Below are positions 14,633-56,674 of a stretch of DNA of 64,000 nucleotides, piece after piece. A program made the translations under genes and the position numbers. This DNA comes from a virus, in IMG/VR virus record IMGVR_UViG_3300035670_000101, positions 29,395-93,394 of that record, one strand, 5' to 3'. Positions within the stretch are counted from its first letter, which is position 1. The number at the start of each line of letters is the position of its first letter. Under the pieces are notes generated by a model. It was not told the DNA's origin. It saw only the letters and a list, made by a program, of their open reading frames with translations, and made no database searches.

Positions 14633-14818
14633 GTGCAGACAATAAATGTTCATTGTTGTGTGTTATATTTTAATTTAAAATTTTATTAATTTATTTTGTG
14701 AAAGGTATTGCTTCAAATAATGAATAGTGATTTAATAGTTTTCAAGGGGATGGGGATAATAAGAACAGGGTTGAACTTCTGTTAACCAGCCTAAAAATAA
14801 ATTTATTGGAGATGTATT

Positions 14819-16648: not shown

Positions 16649-16890
16649 CCCCAGAACAAATGCAAAAAATTGTAGATAGTGCACCTATTGATGCGACCGA
16701 TATTGACCATACTGGCGCATACTGGAAAGACGACCTGATGATGGTTGATGACAAATATCAGGAGGATGATAGAGGTTGGGCTTTGATTAAATGGCGGTTA
16801 AGTCATTTACGCACCCAACTCAATAAACATAACACGTCAGACCTAGAACCTACGAATGTTCCACACGACACAGTTGTTTTGGAGGAGTAA
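16645..16890 (+). CDS. hypothetical protein
   Basis: ATGA overlap; IVDSAPIDAT motif. Confidence 0.7.
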   Translation: MTPEQMQKIVDSAPIDATDIDHTGAYWKDDLMMVDDKYQEDDRGWALIKWRLSHLRTQLNKHNTSDLEPTNVPHDTVVLEE

Positions 16891-17478
16891 ATGAAGGGTG
16901 GCAATAGATTGGTTTATGGTTTTGGTATTACAGACATTCCTTCAGGAAAAAATGGAAATCACTCTCGGGAGTATATGCTTTGGAAGGGTATGATAAGAAG
17001 ATGTTACGCTTCCAATAGGTCTGTATTCTCAGATAACTATTTGGAATGTACGGTTTCAGATGATTTTAAGCTGTTCTCTAAATTCTCAAGCTGGTATAAC
17101 AACCAGAAGGGATCATCCATAGATGGGTGGTGTGTCGACAAAGACCTTTTGGTTAAGGGGAATAAAATTTACTCCCCAGAAACTTGCGTTTTTCTTCCTA
17201 GGGAAATAAATACCGCCATCACTACTAGCAACAATAAAAGAGGTGATATGCCAATAGGTGTGTTTTTTAATAAAAAACTTGGGAAATACTCAGCCACCGT
17301 CAGCTCAATGGGAAAGAGCAACTATTTAGGCTTGTTTAATACACCAGATCAAGCGTTTTTTGCCTACAAGTCCAAAAAAGAGGAGTTAATGGCTGGATTA
17401 GCTAAAAAGTACATCGATCAATTGTCTGAAAAAGCATACAACGCATTGATAGGATTCAACGTCGACATAAGCGACTAA
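16891..17478 (+). CDS. HNH-variant homing endonuclease-like protein with AP2-like tail (copy 2)
   Basis: WKGMIRRCY...VDKDLLVKGNKIYSPETCVFLP..IN; YLGLFNTPDQAF. Confidence 0.75.
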   Translation: MKGGNRLVYGFGITDIPSGKNGNHSREYMLWKGMIRRCYASNRSVFSDNYLECTVSDDFKLFSKFSSWYNNQKGSSIDGWCVDKDLLVKGNKIYSPETCVFLPREINTAITTSNNKRGDMPIGVFFNKKLGKYSATVSSMGKSNYLGLFNTPDQAFFAYKSKKEELMAGLAKKYIDQLSEKAYNALIGFNVDISD

Positions 17479-17483
17479 ACTCA

Positions 17484-17509
17484 AGCCTCCCTAACGAGGC
17501 TTTTCTTTT
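17484..17509 (+). terminator. terminator at convergence of + and - operons
   Basis: aagcctc-cctaac-gaggctt-ttctttt. Confidence 0.7.
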
Positions 17510-17532
17510 GTTATTAAAAACTCCCCTGTCCC

Positions 17533-17937
17533 TCACTCCTTATCCTCTCTGAAATACCCCATCAAAGCTACTACAGCCCAGATTACTAGCCCTATAGTGA
17601 ATACAACCCCGTACATCGTTGTACCAGCTTGAAATCCGTAAGCAAAGTTTAACAGGTAGGACAGTACCAGACACCCAAATAGAAGCCCTATATGGAACTT
17701 ATCATCCTCCTCACGGTGTCTTTCTCTGCGCATCTCACTACGATCTTTACGTGTTGACCCTACCTTAACTCTGGAGTCATCACTGATGTATTGATATTCA
17801 GGGTTTTTATTCTCTCTGTACTCAAATTCGTAAGATGCCAAGTCATTAGATTTTGTTCTAAGGTTATTTCTGTTAGGTGGGTTTCTGTTAGAATTACTGT
17901 TCGCAACATTTCTTTTTTGATATGTTTTAGTAGGCAT
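17533..17937 (-). CDS. membrane protein with basic disordered N-terminus and two C-terminal TMs
   Basis: AGGAG RBS (inside a hairpin); two hydrophobic helices. Confidence 0.65.
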   Translation of the reverse strand: MPTKTYQKRNVANSNSNRNPPNRNNLRTKSNDLASYEFEYRENKNPEYQYISDDSRVKVGSTRKDRSEMRRERHREEDDKFHIGLLFGCLVLSYLLNFAYGFQAGTTMYGVVFTIGLVIWAVVALMGYFREDKE

Positions 17938-18064
17938 GAAAAAAGCTCCTATTGTGAGGAGCGTATTTTAATATCTCCCCTTTTATTATTATTTAACAAC
18001 AATTGAAACATTGTTGGATTTATAACTCAATAGGGAGTTTGTTAATACAGTAATTATGTTGTAA

Positions 18065-18454
18065 TTACAAGTATGAGAATTGTTTTACTCTATTCACATT
18101 GTATTCATCCTCTTGTTTATCTGGAATGTACGGAGAATAAACCTTGTAATGCTCTGTGAACATTTCTAAAATCCATTGGTATACATGCCACTCTATTTTA
18201 AATCCTTGATTAAGAAGTATGTGTTTCACGTTGTCTAACTCTAAATGTGTACGACACTTAATAGGTTTTCTTGATGTTATGTAAACGTGACCAACTTTCT
18301 TTTGATATGTTATGTAAATACAACAACCATAGGATTCAAGAAAACAATATTCTTTACCTTTCTTTGCTACATAGCAATATAGTCGCTGACTACACCCATA
18401 AGTCCAAACTGTGTACCAGTCCCATCCAAGCAGGTGTGATAATTCACTGTACAT
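18065..18454 (-). CDS. hypothetical protein
   Basis: GGGG RBS; operonic. Confidence 0.7.
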   Translation of the reverse strand: MYSELSHLLGWDWYTVWTYGCSQRLYCYVAKKGKEYCFLESYGCCIYITYQKKVGHVYITSRKPIKCRTHLELDNVKHILLNQGFKIEWHVYQWILEMFTEHYKVYSPYIPDKQEDEYNVNRVKQFSYL

Positions 18455-20498: not shown

Positions 20499-20544
20499 TT
20501 CCCTTTGGTGAGATTTCACTGTAATTTGATAAAAGTTTAGTTTA

Positions 20545-22333: not shown

Positions 22334-23098
22334 TTAATCTATCACACCAAGTTCTCGAAGCTCTTTCAACCAGTATTTAACTGTTCGTAAACTTACACCA
22401 AGTATATCTGCCATCTCTTGATTTGTTTTACCATCATCCTCAGCGTACAGTTGATACAGTTGAAACTTCTTAGGTTTCTTAACAACCTTTCTGACATCCA
22501 AAAGTCTATTCTTTAAGATACTTACATCATCTTCAATTTGTGCTGTTTTCTGTGTAATGGTTGACTCAAAATTACTTTGGCGATCTTGTAATGCAGAAAC
22601 AACATCCTCAAGAGCTTTTAATCTCTCTCTTTGATCACTATCACTTTTCACTTTATAGATCATCTTGATGGTTTGCATTGGTGTTTTCTGTTTCTTAACA
22701 TCACGTCTACCTAACAATTTCTCTTTCATTAACATCTTCTGAGTAGGGTGATCCATGTGCTTCTCCATAACAAGAACAGCAGGGAAAAATTGCTTATGCT
22801 TATTCTCATCGAAAAACTTAACATCTTCTGCACACTCTAATGAAAGATTGACAATATCTTCTAGGCTGTGTTCATAAGTGTCAACTTCTAAGTTACCTAA
22901 CCAGATTTTATCGACACAATCAAAAACTTTGTCATTCTTTTCTGGATCATAAAACTGCCTAAGAATATTTACGTTTTCCATACTCAGCGATTTTAGTTTC
23001 GCATAGTTTAAGGAAAGTTTCTTTATCTGTTCCTTTTTATACTCTTCACTAAAAACATTTTCATTGAAATCTTTAATATCAAAATCTTTATCTGTCAC
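22334..23098 (-). CDS. coiled-coil protein with C-terminal HTH
   Basis: KTNQEMADILGVSLRTVKYWLKEL. Confidence 0.8.
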   Translation of the reverse strand: MTDKDFDIKDFNENVFSEEYKKEQIKKLSLNYAKLKSLSMENVNILRQFYDPEKNDKVFDCVDKIWLGNLEVDTYEHSLEDIVNLSLECAEDVKFFDENKHKQFFPAVLVMEKHMDHPTQKMLMKEKLLGRRDVKKQKTPMQTIKMIYKVKSDSDQRERLKALEDVVSALQDRQSNFESTITQKTAQIEDDVSILKNRLLDVRKVVKKPKKFQLYQLYAEDDGKTNQEMADILGVSLRTVKYWLKELRELGVID

Positions 23099-24615
23099 TG
23101 AATTTCCTCCACCACTTCTTTTAAATTTAAATCAATATCATAAGCATGTAAGAAATCAAACGGGAGTTCAAGTGTATTAATTGCTCGTGTACATGCAACG
23201 TAAAACAAGTTTACTTCCTGTTGATTATACTTCTCCATACCTTTTTCCAAAGTAATAACCTCACAATTAAAGTCACTATGAATCTTAACCTGTTTCCACT
23301 CCATCCCTTTACTCTTATGTGCTGTAGTTAATAAAACATCATACTTAATAAAAGGTTTCTTACTGTCTTCAATCAGCATATCAAGAGCTTTAGAGTATGT
23401 GTGTGTTTTATGGTTAGTCACAATGTTAACAAGACGTTTAATCTCTGGTTGATCACCAGCATCTTCAAGCATATCATCCCAACTGGAATACACATTAATC
23501 TCTTCATCTTTAACTTTACTTTTATCACCTTTGAACAAATAATAAGAACTCCAAATCATACTCTGGAACTTCTTAGGATCAATCTCACATTTAACTTTCT
23601 TACCAAGAGAAATATAATTAATAGCTTCCTCTAACAAAGCACCATTAGTACGAAAGATAACAGTATAAGGAAATTCTTTATCTACAAATGAAACAACACT
23701 AGAAATACTCTCCAACCCTTTAACTTGTATTTCATTGTTAATTACTTTACTAGCAACATTAGCAATAGCTTCCCCATAACGAAAAGATTTAGACAATAAG
23801 AATGTAGGAGCATCCTGAATCATTTCCATAGCATTAACAGCTTGTCTAAAAGCATAAATACTCTGATAAGTATCACCAACATAAACAACCTTACAATCTG
23901 TTTGTTGTTTAATAATATCTAACACTACAGGACTACTATCTTGAGCTTCATCCAGATAAATAATTTCATAAGGAAGTTTAGGTTTAGACAATTGATATAA
24001 CTTCTGGTATGTATCATGATCAGCTTTAACTAAACTTTTAGGGTTAACTTTATCTAACCAAAACTGCTTACTTACATCAACAATAACATCTAGTAACTTA
24101 ATCTTATTAGCTTTAGTACATTTATCTAAATACTTATCAACATCATTAGGGATATGTTTAATCTCTACTTGTTCATCAGCACTATTCTGGTATCTATTAA
24201 TAGTTGACTTAACTAATGTTGCAATAGTGGTAGAAGATAAAAACTCATCTTTCTTCATTTTAAAATCTTTAATCTTGTACAGATTAGCAATCTCTTTAGA
24301 GGTTCTTCCTCTGTTAACATAAGAGGTGTCATAGGGAGTATTAATCTTATGAGCTAACATCTTACCATAGACACCATAAGCTAAAGAGTGTACAGTCTTA
24401 CAGGAAGTGTGTTTAGGGAATGTTTCTGAAGCTATAGTAGCATTCTGTTTGTTAAAGCAAACATATAAACTACTAACAGGGTTATCCTCTGCCAATAATC
24501 TTAGTGTACTACTCTTACCACTTCCAGCTACAGCATTAACTTTAATAACTTTATGTTGTTTGAAGGATTCTAAGATTAGCTTCTGCTCATCCGTTGGTGT
24601 AAACTTAATAGACAT
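23095..24615 (-). CDS. UvrD/Rep-family (SF1A) DNA helicase
   Basis: AVAGSGKS, DEAQD, VGDTYQSIYAFR, SFRY, TAHKSKGMEW, FYVACTRA. Confidence 0.93.
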   Translation of the reverse strand: MSIKFTPTDEQKLILESFKQHKVIKVNAVAGSGKSSTLRLLAEDNPVSSLYVCFNKQNATIASETFPKHTSCKTVHSLAYGVYGKMLAHKINTPYDTSYVNRGRTSKEIANLYKIKDFKMKKDEFLSSTTIATLVKSTINRYQNSADEQVEIKHIPNDVDKYLDKCTKANKIKLLDVIVDVSKQFWLDKVNPKSLVKADHDTYQKLYQLSKPKLPYEIIYLDEAQDSSPVVLDIIKQQTDCKVVYVGDTYQSIYAFRQAVNAMEMIQDAPTFLLSKSFRYGEAIANVASKVINNEIQVKGLESISSVVSFVDKEFPYTVIFRTNGALLEEAINYISLGKKVKCEIDPKKFQSMIWSSYYLFKGDKSKVKDEEINVYSSWDDMLEDAGDQPEIKRLVNIVTNHKTHTYSKALDMLIEDSKKPFIKYDVLLTTAHKSKGMEWKQVKIHSDFNCEVITLEKGMEKYNQQEVNLFYVACTRAINTLELPFDFLHAYDIDLNLKEVVEEIQ

Positions 24616-25069
24616 TTGTGTGTTTCTCCGTAGAAATGTTTTGATAATAAATTATAGTATAACACTTTAGGATTTATAAAACAAGGTAGAGTGCAGAAAA
24701 AGGGCAAAAAAAATTCAAATTTTCTTATATAATATAAATTATAGTAGAGAAATATTTTTAGTGTACCTTGCTTTTAAGGTTTTATAATCACTAACAGGAG
24801 TTATAAGGTTCTTGAAAGAGTCTTCTTATTATTTGTACATAATATCTCTTAAAATATGTAACTATATTGTAACTAGAAGAATAGTGATATAAAAATCCTC
24901 CTATTATATAGCAATAGAAATAATAAGAGTATGTTATTGTTATAGTTAGTAATAGTATTAATAAAGACAATAATGGAATATGTTATTATATTAAAGATAT
25001 GAATAAAGAGTTAAGATATTAGCACAAATAGTGATATAAGAATATTATTAGAATTAGTGTAACATTAGC

Positions 25070-25582
25070 GGTTGTTAGGGATTATTATAGAGGTTTACAA
25101 CAACCATGTAAGTATTACCAGTAGTGCTTCTTTAAGGGTTTAACAATAATCTTTATAACCCTTGTAGGGGTGTTCTTAGGGTTCTCTTATGGTATAGAGT
25201 AAACTTTATAAAACAACTATGGTGTTAAACATGACACTAGAATACATTACTACTATGTTACAAATTCTCTGTAACATAACCTTATAAAATTCACTAACAG
25301 GGAACACCCTACCTTTTATCTAAAAGAACCTTAAAGGGAGAGGGATTGTTTGCAGCAGACAAAATCCCTAAAACTATAGTATTATTGTGCTGTATTGTTG
25401 TTGGTGCTCAACGTCCGTAGGACAGTATTCTAAACAGTGGTATGCACAGTATAGTCTTCTTAAGAGTAATTCTTTAAAGTGTTCCCTTTAGTGAATCTCC
25501 AACTAAAGCCTACATTCGTAGTCTTTGTTGTATATTGTGTTGTAACATTCAAACTTCATTGCATTCGTTTTCATTAACAACA
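25070..25582. other. structured non-coding element A (origin-like)
   Basis: 18-bp inverted repeat 25289-25307/25479-25496 enclosing several hairpins; paralogous to 45297-45552. Confidence 0.55.
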
Positions 25583-25609
25583 TACACCAGAATTAATTGT
25601 TGTTTAGTG

Positions 25610-25638
25610 TTGACTTCTTTTTGTTGCTAAAGTATATT
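25610..25638 (+). promoter_or_regulatory. sigma70-type promoter
   Basis: TTGACT-17-TATATT. Confidence 0.7.
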
Positions 25639-25670
25639 TAATTTAATATTAAATTATATAAGGATCTAAA

Positions 25671-25856
25671 GTGATAACAGATGTTGTATTAACTATAGCT
25701 GTAGTAGTATTTGTTTGGTGCTTAAGTTTTATTAGTGTTATGTTTCTCCTACTATCAGATGCAGATTATAAAACTAAGAATAGTTATAGTACTATGGTGC
25801 TAGGTGTTATAGTGTTGGTGTTGTTTCTCTACTGTGGTTATATGTTGTTTGTTTAA
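25671..25856 (+). CDS. small two-TM membrane protein
   Basis: AAGGA RBS; hydrophobic. Confidence 0.65.
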   Translation: MITDVVLTIAVVVFVWCLSFISVMFLLLSDADYKTKNSYSTMVLGVIVLVLFLYCGYMLFV

Positions 25857-26463: not shown

Positions 26464-26521
26464 AACAAAGTGCCTCAACTTTCGAAGCTTAGGGGGCTAT
26501 TTTATATTTAGGAGATTAAGA

Positions 26522-26740
26522 TTGATTACTACGATATTAGCTACGGCGTTTGTAATTGTTGGCAGTGGTTTGATGATTGGTGCTACAATACTGTATGCTT
26601 ATATCGTTATCACTCGGAAAGATTTTAACAGTTGGGACTGTAGAGATGTTATTAAACTTATTTTAATTACTTTAATATCTGTTGTTTTTGTTGCTACTGT
26701 TTCAGTGGTGGTAGAATACTTTAAGCACTTAATATCTTAA
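26522..26740 (+). CDS. two-TM membrane protein
   Basis: AGGAG before TTG 26522. Confidence 0.6.
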   Translation: MITTILATAFVIVGSGLMIGATILYAYIVITRKDFNSWDCRDVIKLILITLISVVFVATVSVVVEYFKHLIS

Positions 26741-27242
26741 TGGTATTAGGTGTTTTCTTTTGTCTGCTATACGTGTAGGTTGTTAGAAAAAATTTTGAAT
26801 TTGGGAATTTTTGAAAAATATTTTTAGTGGGTGAAACCCCAGATTCCGAGGAGTATAGGGTGGGTTAAAATGACTACCCAGTAGAAACTCACCAGTCATT
26901 TCATTTTGGTCAGAGCTTACCGTTTATCCCCTATTTTTACTAAAAAATAACAAAAATCACTGTTTTACCGCTTGTTTTTATACCCGTTTCTGTGCTATTC
27001 ACACGCACGTTCCTTTATACGACATTCAAAACGTACTGATTAATGCAATAACACTGCATTGGTAAGCTATAACACTTCTTTGGATGTGATTAATGATAAA
27101 AGACAGGTAGAAATTCCCCTAAATAAACTTATTTAGTAAGCTATTCATAAAATATTTAATAAAATAAACAATTAAATAACCTTTTATTTCATGTATTTAC
27201 CAGTATTTTTAGTATTATTTTAAAATTAATTGAATAAAGTTC

Positions 27243-27270
27243 TTGCAATGATTCTTAAATTTGCTAATAT
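27243..27270 (+). promoter_or_regulatory. early promoter
   Basis: TTGCAA-16-TAATAT with TG extension, AT-rich UP region, followed by CATAC. Confidence 0.65.
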
Positions 27271-27310
27271 GAACTCATACCGAAGCAAGTAGCTTAAAAG
27301 GAGAAACATT

Positions 27311-29290: not shown

Positions 29291-29485
29291 ATGAAAATGA
29301 GTAATTTAGAATCAATATATGAGATGACAAACACACCAGATAAAAGAGAAGCACTAGAGAATCTAACAGACAGTGAAAAGTTAGACATTATTAAACAATT
29401 AACCGACTCTAAAAGCTTTGTTGAAATGCTGTACTATATAGAGTCTGCTCAGGAGGATTCACAATGGTGTCAATCTTATAGATAA
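29291..29485 (+). CDS. early hypothetical protein
   Basis: AAGGAG before ATG 29291. Confidence 0.7.
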   Translation: MKMSNLESIYEMTNTPDKREALENLTDSEKLDIIKQLTDSKSFVEMLYYIESAQEDSQWCQSYR

Positions 29486-29509
29486 ATTAAATATTTTATT
29501 AAATAAGTG

Positions 29510-29538
29510 TTGACTCATTTTAAGAATATCGCTATTAT
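29510..29538 (+). promoter_or_regulatory. early promoter
   Basis: TTGACT-17-TATTAT with AT-rich UP element. Confidence 0.75.
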
Positions 29539-43806: not shown

Positions 43807-45084
43807 TCAATCAAAACCTCCGTCCATCCACTTAACAAACAAATGACACATACGATGATTAGCGATCAACAGGATGATAGGTTCAAAATTTCTAATACGA
43901 CTTCTCCATACGAACTGTAGTAAACTGCTAACAGCATACCTCTCCTCATCAATTGGGAAACCACAAGTTTTTAAATAAACTTTAACAGGTTGTAGTGGGT
44001 ATCTATTATAACAGTGTGCAACCATTCTCTTATTCGAGTACTCATTAGTCGCTCTAGTGTGTACTGATAACCAATTGTACACCCACTCATCCTCGTCATT
44101 CTTGAATCTAACATAACCAGCAGGATTAAGTTTTACAGCTTTTTTATCCTCAGACACACCAAATGCGTTTGCTTTAGGGCAAGTCCAAATTATCTCATCA
44201 GCCTTAACATCGTACTCCTTTGCTGTGTTTTTAATATAATTGGCAATACTACCAACAGATTTTTTATCAACATCACTCTTGAGGTTTTTCCACCAAGTAG
44301 CACTCATTTGTAAATCAACAGTTTTCTTGTTTGGTGAAATTAAAGTAATAAGTTCTCTAAAACTTTCAGGCTTAACCTCTCTCTTAGGTACAATATCCTT
44401 ACAAGGAACAGTATTAATACCCTTAAGCTTTAAGAAGCAATCCAAAACACTACCTTCAAACATGTATGTTATAACAATTACACGTTTAGCACTTGTTAAT
44501 AAGTTTAATGGTATGTGTGATACTAATATGTTTTTCTTAGCAGTCATACCTTTGTTCAGATAAACTGATTTCTTTTCACAAAGATTCTTCAATTTATAGT
44601 ATTTGTGCTCATAATCTTCAACAGATTTATGCTCACCAATCCAAGTTATAGAACCATCTTTTTCATCCACTGTAATTTCTTTTTTGTGAATTAGGTATTC
44701 AATGTCACTTGTACTGTAGACACCATAAGTTTTAATAACCTCAATCTCCTCATCCAATATGATAATATACCCTTGCTTCTTGATAGTTTCAAAATGCTCG
44801 TTAGTCATGCTCAAGTACAGATTATGAGTGCAAGCAATGTTAACACCTTGATCTAGTAATTTAGATAAGTGTTCTATCTTACTTCTACTCTCCTCAATAT
44901 CTGGACTTATAAATTCTGTACCAAGAATCTCTTTATGAATCCTACCATTCTTATCAACTTCGGACAACATAGGTGAAACATAAATGTACTTATCATCAAG
45001 ATTCTTATTTATCCAATTAAAACATTCAGTGCTCTTACCAGCTCCCATAATTGAATCTACTACTTCAACCACAATTTCTTTCAT
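43807..45084 (-). CDS. SF2-like helicase / putative replication origin-binding protein
   Basis: VVDSIMGAGKS Walker A, ILDEE Walker B, QFVWRSRIR motif VI-like. Confidence 0.7.
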   Translation of the reverse strand: MKEIVVEVVDSIMGAGKSTECFNWINKNLDDKYIYVSPMLSEVDKNGRIHKEILGTEFISPDIEESRSKIEHLSKLLDQGVNIACTHNLYLSMTNEHFETIKKQGYIIILDEEIEVIKTYGVYSTSDIEYLIHKKEITVDEKDGSITWIGEHKSVEDYEHKYYKLKNLCEKKSVYLNKGMTAKKNILVSHIPLNLLTSAKRVIVITYMFEGSVLDCFLKLKGINTVPCKDIVPKREVKPESFRELITLISPNKKTVDLQMSATWWKNLKSDVDKKSVGSIANYIKNTAKEYDVKADEIIWTCPKANAFGVSEDKKAVKLNPAGYVRFKNDEDEWVYNWLSVHTRATNEYSNKRMVAHCYNRYPLQPVKVYLKTCGFPIDEERYAVSSLLQFVWRSRIRNFEPIILLIANHRMCHLFVKWMDGGFD

Positions 45085-45149
45085 AAATACTCCTTATTGA
45101 AAAGTTATATTCTACACTAATTCAATAAATAAGTAAACATTTATAAAAT

Positions 45150-45552
45150 TTCTAGATAAAAGTTGTTTTTTACTTTTAATATTCAACGAGTTACAACACT
45201 ATCTCTAGAGTGTAGATGGGTGTACCGTTAGATAATATGCACAATAAAACTATCCTTACGGATGGTATCCTGTGCAGATAACACTAACAACAATACTAAA
45301 GGGAAAAGGGATTTGTTTGATTGCTATAACAATCCCTAAAACTAAAGGGATAACTAAAAGTAATTCCACAGAGGATACAGTTAGTATTATTCAACACTGT
45401 AATGTCCTATCGGACAATTTATTGTTGGGTGCTAACTAACAGTGATAACTGTGGGAATACTCCTATAGTGCATTATCGGTAGATTTCATCTACGCTCTAA
45501 TGATTGCTATAACATTCACACATCACTATCGTTTGTGTTCATTAACAGCAAT
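45150..45552. other. structured non-coding element B (origin-like)
   Basis: Same hairpin order and shared sequence blocks as element A. Confidence 0.55.
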
Positions 45553-45638
45553 GTAAATAATTTAATATTTTATTAAATAGGTATTGTATTTATATTTGTT
45601 TTTGTGCTATAACTAAGACAATCATTTAACTTAAGGAG

Positions 45639-45827
45639 ATGTTAATGTTTTTATATTTTTATTTATTTGTTGATGTGCTACTGCTGTTAACAGGTTTTGT
45701 TCTGTTTGTATTGCTAAAGAACAATGTTGTTATTGTAGATTTAACATCAGCTATTATTATTGGTGTTGTGTATGCTATATTCTTTGTGTTTTGTTTAGTG
45801 CAAACATATATGGAATATACTAAGTAG
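45639..45827 (+). CDS. small two-TM membrane protein
   Basis: AAGGAG RBS; hydrophobic. Confidence 0.65.
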   Translation: MLMFLYFYLFVDVLLLLTGFVLFVLLKNNVVIVDLTSAIIIGVVYAIFFVFCLVQTYMEYTK

Positions 45828-56567: not shown

Positions 56568-56594
56568 TTGAAGTAGCACAGTGTAAGATAATAT

Positions 56595-56616
56595 GGGGAG
56601 TTTTCTCCCCTGTTAT
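56595..56616 (+). terminator. hairpin after capsid gene
   Basis: ggggag-tttt-ctcccc. Confidence 0.5.
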
Positions 56617-56674
56617 TCTAAAGGGATTACGTGTTTGATTCTTTTACAATAACACAAGAATATTAAGGAATATT

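Follow-up and report, generated by a model that had tools for sequence, protein, structure and literature searches.

What is the function of two hairpin-rich intergenic regions that lie about 20 kb apart in a virus genome, each followed by a small rightward gene? The regions, here called elements A and B, are found in a 64,000-nucleotide (nt) stretch, the window, which covers bases 29395-93394 of a 93.4-kb IMG/VR virus record (IMGVR_UViG_3300035670_000101) with an estimated completeness of 96%. Positions below are those of the window unless given as genome positions. A sequence-only reading had taken A and B for twin helicase-linked elements, either a dual-origin system or a new class of non-coding RNA. 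We find that two paralogous structured non-coding elements exist, that they are under selection, and that they act at least partly via local hairpins. As replication origins they are unlikely. The proposal that we favor tentatively, holding it to be possible rather than probable, is that A and B are old paralogous cis-acting transcription-control cassettes or leaders heading two rightward operons.

The elements as modelled are as follows:

25286-25590, plus strand: element A (covariance model R1, 243 bits; RNA fold z -5.1)
45256-45560, plus strand: element B (covariance model R1, 280 bits; RNA fold z -3.9)

A and B share two collinear blocks. The 5′ block contains a hairpin, P1, and the 3′ block contains a hairpin, P4, with an invariant internal loop:

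25319-25369, plus strand: 5′ block of A, comprising a 23-nt motif with TTAAAGGGAGA at its end, followed by P1 (AGGGATT at 25341-47, AATCCCT at 25363-69)
25538-25582, no strand assigned: 3′ block of A, hairpin P4 with outer stem TGTTGT/ACAACA and inner stem AAAC/GTTT
45284-45352, plus strand: 5′ block of B, comprising a 23-nt motif with CTAAAGGGAAA at its end, P1 (45307-45337) and, at 45342, a second CTAAAGGGA
45503-45552, no strand assigned: 3′ block of B, hairpin P4 with outer stem ATTGCT..AGCAAT, inner stem ACAC/GTGT, and the internal loop as in A

The second block begins 163 nt past the first in A and 162 nt past it in B. The 160-200 nt or so that separate the blocks hold hairpins that change quickly, and A and B cannot be aligned reliably there. 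The shared motifs quoted in the sequence-only reading are present. The 5′ motif, TAAAGGGA..(A)GGGATT..GTTTG...AATCCCTAAAACTA.AG, is found by sequence reading and alignment at 25330-25380 in A and 45295-45348 in B; the 3′ motif, TAACATTCA.AC.TCA...TCGTTT..TTCATTAACA.CA, is at 25543-25583 and 45510-45551. The similarity also holds up against shuffling: the best intergenic local score is 40, compared with 26.8±2.9 for dinucleotide shuffles (0/300), and the two collinear blocks together score 75, compared with 49.8±4.3 (z 5.9, 0/300). Genome-wide, there are just two copies of the element. The RNA folds of both plus strands beat those of shuffled sequences, with the z values given above, and the minus strands do about equally well. 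Like the earlier reading, we could assign no named RNA family: at gathering thresholds, Rfam returned only tRNA in the whole window, and a permissive Rfam E-value search gave no match for A and four chance-level matches for B, e.g., SAM-II at 16 bits against a threshold of 44.

Pattern scans of viral contigs identified two further genomes with the elements, IMGVR_UViG_3300011785_000001 (G001, relative 1) and IMGVR_UViG_3300011701_000001 (G002, relative 2), the latter 100% complete with terminal repeats. Relative 1 has both elements. Relative 2 has B and a copy of A that lacks about 170 nt, including P1 and P2, the latter being the long stem that follows P1. All comparative statements made here therefore concern six sequences from three genomes, and covariance model R1 was built from five of the copies. 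The distribution is very narrow. Scans of viral contigs with the 5′ and 3′ block DNA patterns found nothing beyond these three genomes; the 3′ block pattern gave nine chance matches in metagenome contigs and the 5′ block pattern 82 in prokaryote genomes, none of which R1 confirmed; blastn against 50,697 phage records gave no match. R1 found no further copies in the loci around relatives of the large terminase subunit, TerL, or in those of 12 relatives of the superfamily 2 (SF2)-like protein encoded beside B, and no element at the equivalent junction of Acinetobacter phage vB_AciJM_313. That divergent junction of a cultured relative instead carries a direct repeat of about 75 nt, unrelated to the elements and present twice (L093:2265-2335 and 2520-2590), and a tRNA cluster near it is marked as a putative origin by the depositors. 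Closer relatives are present in a large protein collection, in which the SF2-like protein is 64-78% identical.

Orthologous copies of the elements cluster together: the A-type 3′ blocks are all the same, and the B-type ones nearly so. It follows that the split between A and B predates the divergence of the three phages, and that the blocks have been held by selection since then, with no gene conversion between them. Since the blocks have remained alike while the DNA between them has diverged beyond alignment, sequence-specific selection seems indicated.

Covariation among the relatives supports part of the structure first drawn for the elements. Local hairpins are kept by compensatory change, but the long-range helices are not conserved. 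In P4, 96% of the alignment cells are paired, against 30-56% in slid-partner controls, and the outer and inner stems show one compensatory double change each between A and B. The internal loop, AACATTC/TCATTA in A, is invariant over 7-8 nt on each side. The conserved bases of P4 are the non-complementary ones, which fits a single strand that folds but does not fit a double-stranded operator. Kink-turn, sarcin-ricin and UAA/GAN readings of the loop were tried by hand, and none fits. Other features of element A and its left flank are as follows:

25383-25451, plus strand: variable long stem P2 of A, with tip GTCC-GTA-GGAC at 25413-25423 and six G-U pairs, from RNA folds
25500-25530, plus strand: hairpin P3 of A, CAAC..CTAC-loop-GTAG..GTTG, from the RNA fold
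25480-25496, minus strand: inverted copy of the short signal described below, TTCACTAAAGGGAACAC, which is the 3′ arm of A's closing repeat; kept in all three A copies
25254-25278, no strand assigned: hairpin Hp0, TATGTTACA/TGTAACATA, retained in both relatives

In relative 2, P1 has a rebuilt top; in B, the P2 tip goes from GUCC/GGAC to AUCC/GGAU between relatives; and P3 is replaced by an unrelated hairpin in relatives in the A and B lineages alike (GGCG/CGCC in A of relative 1). GTCC-loop-GGAC hairpins, which the sequence-only reading had made a shared feature, do exist in both elements, but their positions are not equivalent relative to the other similar stretch; CTAC/GTAG hairpins also exist in both, but with the strands flipped between them. 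The 18-bp inverted repeat said to close element A is present in this genome's A but is degraded in relative 1 and half deleted in relative 2. From the sequences, a better explanation for this repeat is a pair of signal copies that face opposite ways. The perfect TATGTTACA/TGTAACATA hairpin is confirmed by sequence, and a direct-repeat search recovered the TCACTAACAGG repeat, at 24788 and 25291.

Which strand folds is harder to say. P2 of A has its six G-U pairs on the plus strand, and three A/G transitions between relatives preserve pairing there only. P4 is better on the minus strand, with tandem G-A pairs and with G-U where the plus strand has A-C, and the consensus fold of the B group reaches -51 kcal/mol on the minus strand and -41 kcal/mol on the plus strand. 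The strand evidence is thus mixed; RNA and single-stranded DNA both fit. Three other identities for the elements were set aside. Small open reading frames (ORFs) inside them were rejected because the relatives' indels are not multiples of three. Insertion of a miniature inverted-repeat transposable element was rejected because the short A copy of relative 2 retains parts of both "terminal" repeats, as expected of an internal deletion. A Csr/Rsm sponge was rejected, as GGA occurs 4-7 times per element against 3.0±2.0 per counting window genome-wide.

Each 5′ block opens with a 23-nt motif that ends in CTAAAGGGA(R)A. A weight matrix for this motif scores B at 31 bits and A at 26 bits and gives at most 12.5 anywhere else; the motif is conserved in five element copies, with only two high scorers per genome. 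The exact 9-nt core, CTAAAGGGA, occurs five times in the genome. Four copies are intergenic, in sequence that makes up a few percent of the genome by a rough ORF map: one in A on the minus strand, two in B, and one directly after the terminator of the major head gene. In more distant relatives there are 0-1 copies. The inverted copy in A survives even in the A copy that lacks the plus-strand one, and the post-terminator copy, TGTTATTCTAAAGGGATT, is invariant in all three genomes:

56585-56628, plus strand: intrinsic terminator after the major head gene, GGGGAG-TTTT-CTCCCC, then a signal copy, TTCTAAAGGGATT; invariant in three genomes

The fifth copy, inside the gene for a polymerase-fold protein, is a coding coincidence, since it encodes a conserved RDFTKGM motif. 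A reading of the signal as a -35-like box with a -10 box in the P1 loop was rejected because the spacing at the capsid site varies from 18 to 33 nt across genomes. The core CACTAAAGGGAGA presumably coincides with the T3 RNA polymerase promoter from -7 to +6, which we take as a lead only.

A candidate reader of the signal is encoded outside the window, at genome positions 16655-17953. This 432-residue protein belongs to phrog_4756 and to no Pfam family. The model predicts, with high confidence, a family-A polymerase/single-subunit RNA polymerase fold with a winged-helix-like N-terminus, and the sequence has an invariant Asp, an Arg..Lys pair and an HDS motif. VIA-align matches the protein to apPOL over 241 aligned positions (Z 13.5, root-mean-square deviation (rmsd) 4.4), to yeast mitochondrial RNA polymerase over 329 (Z 13.3, rmsd 7.8) and to T7 RNA polymerase over 250 (Z 11.6, rmsd 3.9); all Foldseek matches listed are DNA polymerases. 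Phages of Vibrio, Pseudoalteromonas and Aeromonas have homologues, every one of them annotated as hypothetical. It is tempting to propose that a phage-specific transcription system starts at CACTAAAGGGA(R)A, with this half-size HDSF enzyme maybe reading the signal and with A and B as promoters plus structured 5′ leaders, and yet we regard this specific version as distinctly improbable. The gene is present in relative 1 and absent from relative 2. In favor of a link, relative 2 has also deleted the plus-strand signal copy in A and has degenerate copies in B; against it, relative 2 retains element B together with two signal copies, the one after the terminator and the inverted one in A. The connection between enzyme and signal is suggestive at best.

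The phage is an Acinetobacter-phage-like, FelixO1/Saclayvirus-like myovirus of about 93 kb. Its TerL is 50% identical to the terminase of Acinetobacter phage vB_AbaM_B9 and to those of similar phages of about 90 kb, and its gene set is that of a lytic myovirus (terminase, portal, protease, head, tape-measure, baseplate, ribonucleotide reductase, primase-helicase and family-A DNA polymerase). GC skew and the ORF map divide the genome into five strand blocks, with two convergent junctions and two divergent ones. The sole two divergent junctions, at 24.6-25.7 kb and 45.1-45.6 kb, are occupied by A and B. The neighbors of the elements at the two junctions, with P_L and P_R denoting predicted leftward and rightward promoters, are as follows:

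23095-24615, minus strand: UvrD-like superfamily 1 (SF1) helicase; only this genome has it as first leftward gene at A
24850-25075, no strand assigned: AT-rich, C-poor tract upstream of A, with repeat pairs AATAGTGATATAA (24880, 25027) and GAGTATGTTATT (24927, 24976)
25084-25112, minus strand: P_L(A), sigma70-type, CTTACA-17-TATAAT, from the promoter scan
25610-25656, plus strand: P_R(A) and a palindromic operator (25639-25656)
25671-25856, plus strand: tmA, a 61-residue ORF with two hydrophobic segments; identity to its counterparts in the two relatives, 81% and 42%
43807-45084, minus strand: PF27199/phrog_2467 protein, an SF2 helicase by fold, encoded by the first leftward gene at B
45109-45137, minus strand: P_L(B), TTTACT-17-TAGAAT, from the promoter scan
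45555-45613, plus strand: operator-like palindrome (45555-45583), then P_R(B); the operator resembles those of two other promoters; conserved in relatives
45639-45827, plus strand: tmB, a 62-residue ORF with two hydrophobic segments, weakly similar to tmA (E 0.008)

The architecture described from sequence at both loci thus holds: a first leftward gene on the minus strand, the hairpin cassette, a rightward promoter, and an ORF of 61 or 62 residues with two hydrophobic segments on the plus strand. So does the sigma70-like promoter near A, which the promoter scan places at 25610-25638 on the plus strand (TTGACT-17-TATATT) and which is conserved in relatives. P_R(B), TTGTAT-18-TATAAC behind TGC at 45584-45613, is conserved in relatives and was read by eye; it has no T at position 6 and was not listed by the promoter scan tool. 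At P_L(A), a TTACA..TATAA pattern is partly retained in relatives. Given the positions of these promoters, each element lies in a spacer of about 450-500 bp between back-to-back predicted promoters, beside the rightward one. A palindromic operator, TTTAATATT...AAATTAAA, follows the -10 box at P_R(A) and at a promoter at genome 18.17 kb (18190-18222); the same operator precedes the -35 box at P_R(B) and at 29510 (window 29485-29509). One regulator acting on these operators might repress some promoters and activate others.

Within element B, the P1 loop (45318-45334), the 5′ strand of P4 (45501-45517) and the core of the rightward promoter (45594-45613) share TGCTATAAC, with similar flanks; the copy in P1 is lost in relative 2. 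Downstream of A, within the small rightward operon, there is an 847-nt stretch without ORFs at 26464-27310. The tract at 24850-25075 contains two pairs of direct repeats of 12-17 nt. Its 225 nt are nearly 100% identical in relative 1, in contrast to the 80-90% or so by which the genomes otherwise agree, and are mostly kept in relative 2, the DNA to the left being replaced. The tract is probably downstream of P_L(A) and therefore may be a leader of the leftward operon.

The two neighboring helicases do belong to different superfamilies. The A-side protein is SF1 (Pfam UvrD-helicase, E 1.7e-12; phrog_1967, E 3e-97); the B-side protein is SF2 by fold, its AlphaFold2 model (mean predicted local distance difference test score 91) matching XPD, Brr2 and RecQ in Foldseek with E values from 7e-8 to 1e-4. 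The idea of a helicase-linked system finds no support in the relatives, which swap the first leftward gene and retain the element, the rightward promoter and the small ORF with two predicted transmembrane segments. At A, the leftward genes are those for UvrD and a helix-turn-helix protein here, and UvrD is absent from that place in relatives. In relative 2, the first leftward gene at A is an uncharacterized 326-residue ORF, with a helicase-like gene second; elsewhere, the slot is filled by SF2-like proteins of the PF27199 family. Relative 1 has at this place (L007:6253-10220) a 628-residue DESH-motif protein, a T4-type RNA ligase and a polynucleotide kinase-phosphatase (Pnkp) instead of the UvrD and helix-turn-helix proteins, the ligase and Pnkp being an RNA repair module. 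The PF27199 SF2-like protein is present twice, as diverged copies, in several related phage genomes (L097/L101, L102/L103), with 1-1.7 kb devoid of long ORFs upstream of the copies in L097 and L103. Since element, rightward promoter and transmembrane ORF are retained despite the leftward swaps, the cassette belongs with the rightward operon.

Where, then, does replication start? A lambda-O-like initiator (phrog_6643, E 6e-32) is encoded at genome 14460-15383, outside the window. Its gene holds a DnaA box, TTATCCACA, at 14747, an AT-rich tract, and four related repeats of 18-19 nt at 14775, 14798, 14819 and 14841, spaced 21-22 bp apart. In the O-type initiator family, the origin sits inside the initiator gene. 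The iterons, the DnaA box, the AT-rich tract and the behavior of the family together make it likely, as judged from sequence features, that the origin of this phage lies inside the O-like initiator gene. In contrast, neither intergenic region has phased iterons, the search for these having found only two-copy repeat families with irregular spacing of 39-1002 nt. Cumulative GC skew has local minima at both A and B, and these are no independent evidence of an origin because the skew mirrors gene orientation. The proposal of twin origins at A and B is accordingly not supported.

We return to the proposal that A and B are transcription-control cassettes or leaders of the two rightward operons. The cassette would begin with two to three copies of the CTAAAGGGA signal, the main one being the 3′ end of the 23-nt motif and abutting P1. 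About 160-200 nt of fast-changing hairpins follow, then P4, a sigma70-type promoter that bears an operator, and the small two-transmembrane ORF. The signal would be a site of transcription start or recognition specific to the phage, with the first G of CTAAAGGGA at about 25337, 45302, 45348 and 56624. A structured leader RNA would then run rightward from the signal, through P4 and into the operon. P4 may be a protein-recognition or processing hairpin, like those of the T7 early leader, and the downstream sigma70 promoter could be a second, operator-controlled entry point. That the cassette is transcribed, in this direction, and that a factor reads the signal is what we infer from this arrangement.

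Several observations weigh against such a scheme. The predicted P_L and P_R leave each element in a spacer that neither mRNA need cover: the sole conserved sigma70-type promoter lies downstream of the element, and promoter scans gave no convincing plus-strand sigma70 promoter upstream of either element and no clear terminator. The operon at A looks early, with small ORFs and a putative Ocr-like gene, and early expression speaks against a need for a polymerase made by the phage. Copies of the signal are found in both orientations, as would also suit a protein site on double-stranded DNA. The fold z values are about equal on the two strands and weak in relative 1 (-1.5 for its A), the minimum-energy folds differ among relatives along with the lost long-range helices, and P4 pairs better on the minus strand. 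In relative 2, A does without P1 and P2 altogether and the signal copies of B are degenerate, and the number of sequences compared is small.

These objections lend weight to other explanations. Much as the sequence-only reading had it, the element may work as DNA: cruciforms or single-stranded hairpins extruded in the negatively supercoiled spacer would serve for priming or helicase entry or as a secondary origin. Its place between predicted back-to-back promoters at both divergent junctions would then make sense, as would the fact that four of the four identified first leftward genes encode helicase-like nucleoside triphosphatases, of different families; folding that favors neither strand, the tandem G-A pairs of P4 on the minus strand and the skew minima at both elements point the same way. 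We nevertheless consider this explanation unlikely, given the canonical lambda-type origin elsewhere, the lack of phased iterons, a skew that tracks gene orientation, helicase partners that are not conserved (UvrD at A being the case in point), and the tolerance of relative 2 for the loss of half of element A. Significant folding and compensatory hairpin changes are equally what a stand-alone non-coding RNA would show. Such an RNA, of about 250-350 nt, would be made from either strand from an unrecognized phage-specific promoter and act in trans as a sponge, guide or decoy. Motifs of a hairpin plus a U-run to the left of element B, just before P_L, here and in relative 2, and a terminator-like site on the minus strand at 25313-25296 also speak for it. 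Yet there is no Rfam match, neither strand has a conserved promoter, conservation does not extend to the global fold, GGA is not enriched, so that it is not Csr-sponge-like, and the distribution is very narrow; we think an RNA of this kind quite unlikely.

A cluster of binding sites on double-stranded DNA, through which a phage or host regulator tunes both divergent promoters while the hairpins are incidental, is to our minds just as doubtful as a trans-acting RNA. It would explain why CTAAAGGGA is found in both orientations and in variable copy number, why AGGGA is enriched in the elements, and why a copy of the signal with one mismatch lies immediately upstream of a -35 hexamer at 20508, where it is conserved in one relative. 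Plain duplex sites are, however, not expected to have non-palindromic conserved bases while the stems co-vary, as in P4, or to have one hairpin replaced by another, as happens to P3 in two lineages. Finally, A and B could be recombination linkers or leftovers, that is, duplicated regulatory modules that provide homology for module swaps and have little function beyond the promoter. In relatives, gene content does switch exactly at the left edge of the conserved non-coding DNA, and large indels are tolerated, the 170-nt deletion among them. We hold this to be very improbable, because no trace of gene conversion is seen between the A and B blocks of one genome and because these blocks have stayed alike while the DNA between them diverged beyond alignment.

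If A and B are promoter-leader units, they provide an entry point to gene regulation in the poorly studied Acinetobacter-type myoviruses of about 90 kb, members of which serve as therapeutic candidates, and a 9-13-nt signal is paired with a small polymerase-fold protein whose role is unassigned. Should a novel polymerase indeed read the signal, a T3-like design of promoter plus leader would exist outside the T7 group. If they are only regulatory spacers, the dual-origin call is removed, the likely origin is placed in the initiator gene, and the neighboring helicase slot becomes an exchangeable module.

Four known systems invite comparison. The oriL and oriR sites of Bacillus phage SPP1 are, like A and B, two related non-coding sites about 20 kb apart; the SPP1 and lambda origins differ in consisting of initiator-binding repeats beside an AT-rich tract, and A and B have no phased iterons. 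The promoter-early stem-loops (PeSLs) of T4-type phages resemble the elements in combining a stem-loop with an early sigma70 promoter at borders of gene content. PeSLs, however, are short, numerous and near-identical, whereas A and B are a pair of long copies whose likeness is confined to two 45-nt blocks, without sign of recent exchange between them, and we do not assign them to the PeSL type. Closer in layout are nutL and nutR of lambda and putL and putR of HK022, two paralogous cis elements, one per operon, with short conserved blocks and a variable spacer. Those are 30-70 nt long and lie downstream of known promoters in divergent operons; A and B point in one direction, measure about 300 nt and precede a predicted sigma70 promoter, and no N- or Q-like factor was identified.

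The remaining comparison is with the early leader of T7 and T3. Promoters of the T7 group are about 23 bp long (-17 to +6), are G-rich from +1 to +3 and occur in several copies pointing at downstream genes, and the T7-type RNase III hairpin, a helix of about 20 bp interrupted by an internal loop, is part of a transcript and is cut by RNase III. The differences are plain: the present phage is a FelixO1/Saclayvirus-like myovirus with only two full 23-nt copies per genome and no recognizable full-size T7-type RNA polymerase, its sigma70 promoter is downstream of the element and not upstream, and transcription and processing are only predicted. Nevertheless, the T7/T3 leader, too, is a non-coding region of several hundred nt that heads an operon with an Ocr-like gene. 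T7-group promoters likewise consist of a short conserved signal, ending GGGAGA, followed by a stable 5′ hairpin, and P4, placed shortly before the first gene, has the general shape of the T7 RNase III hairpins and an internal loop whose sequence is conserved.

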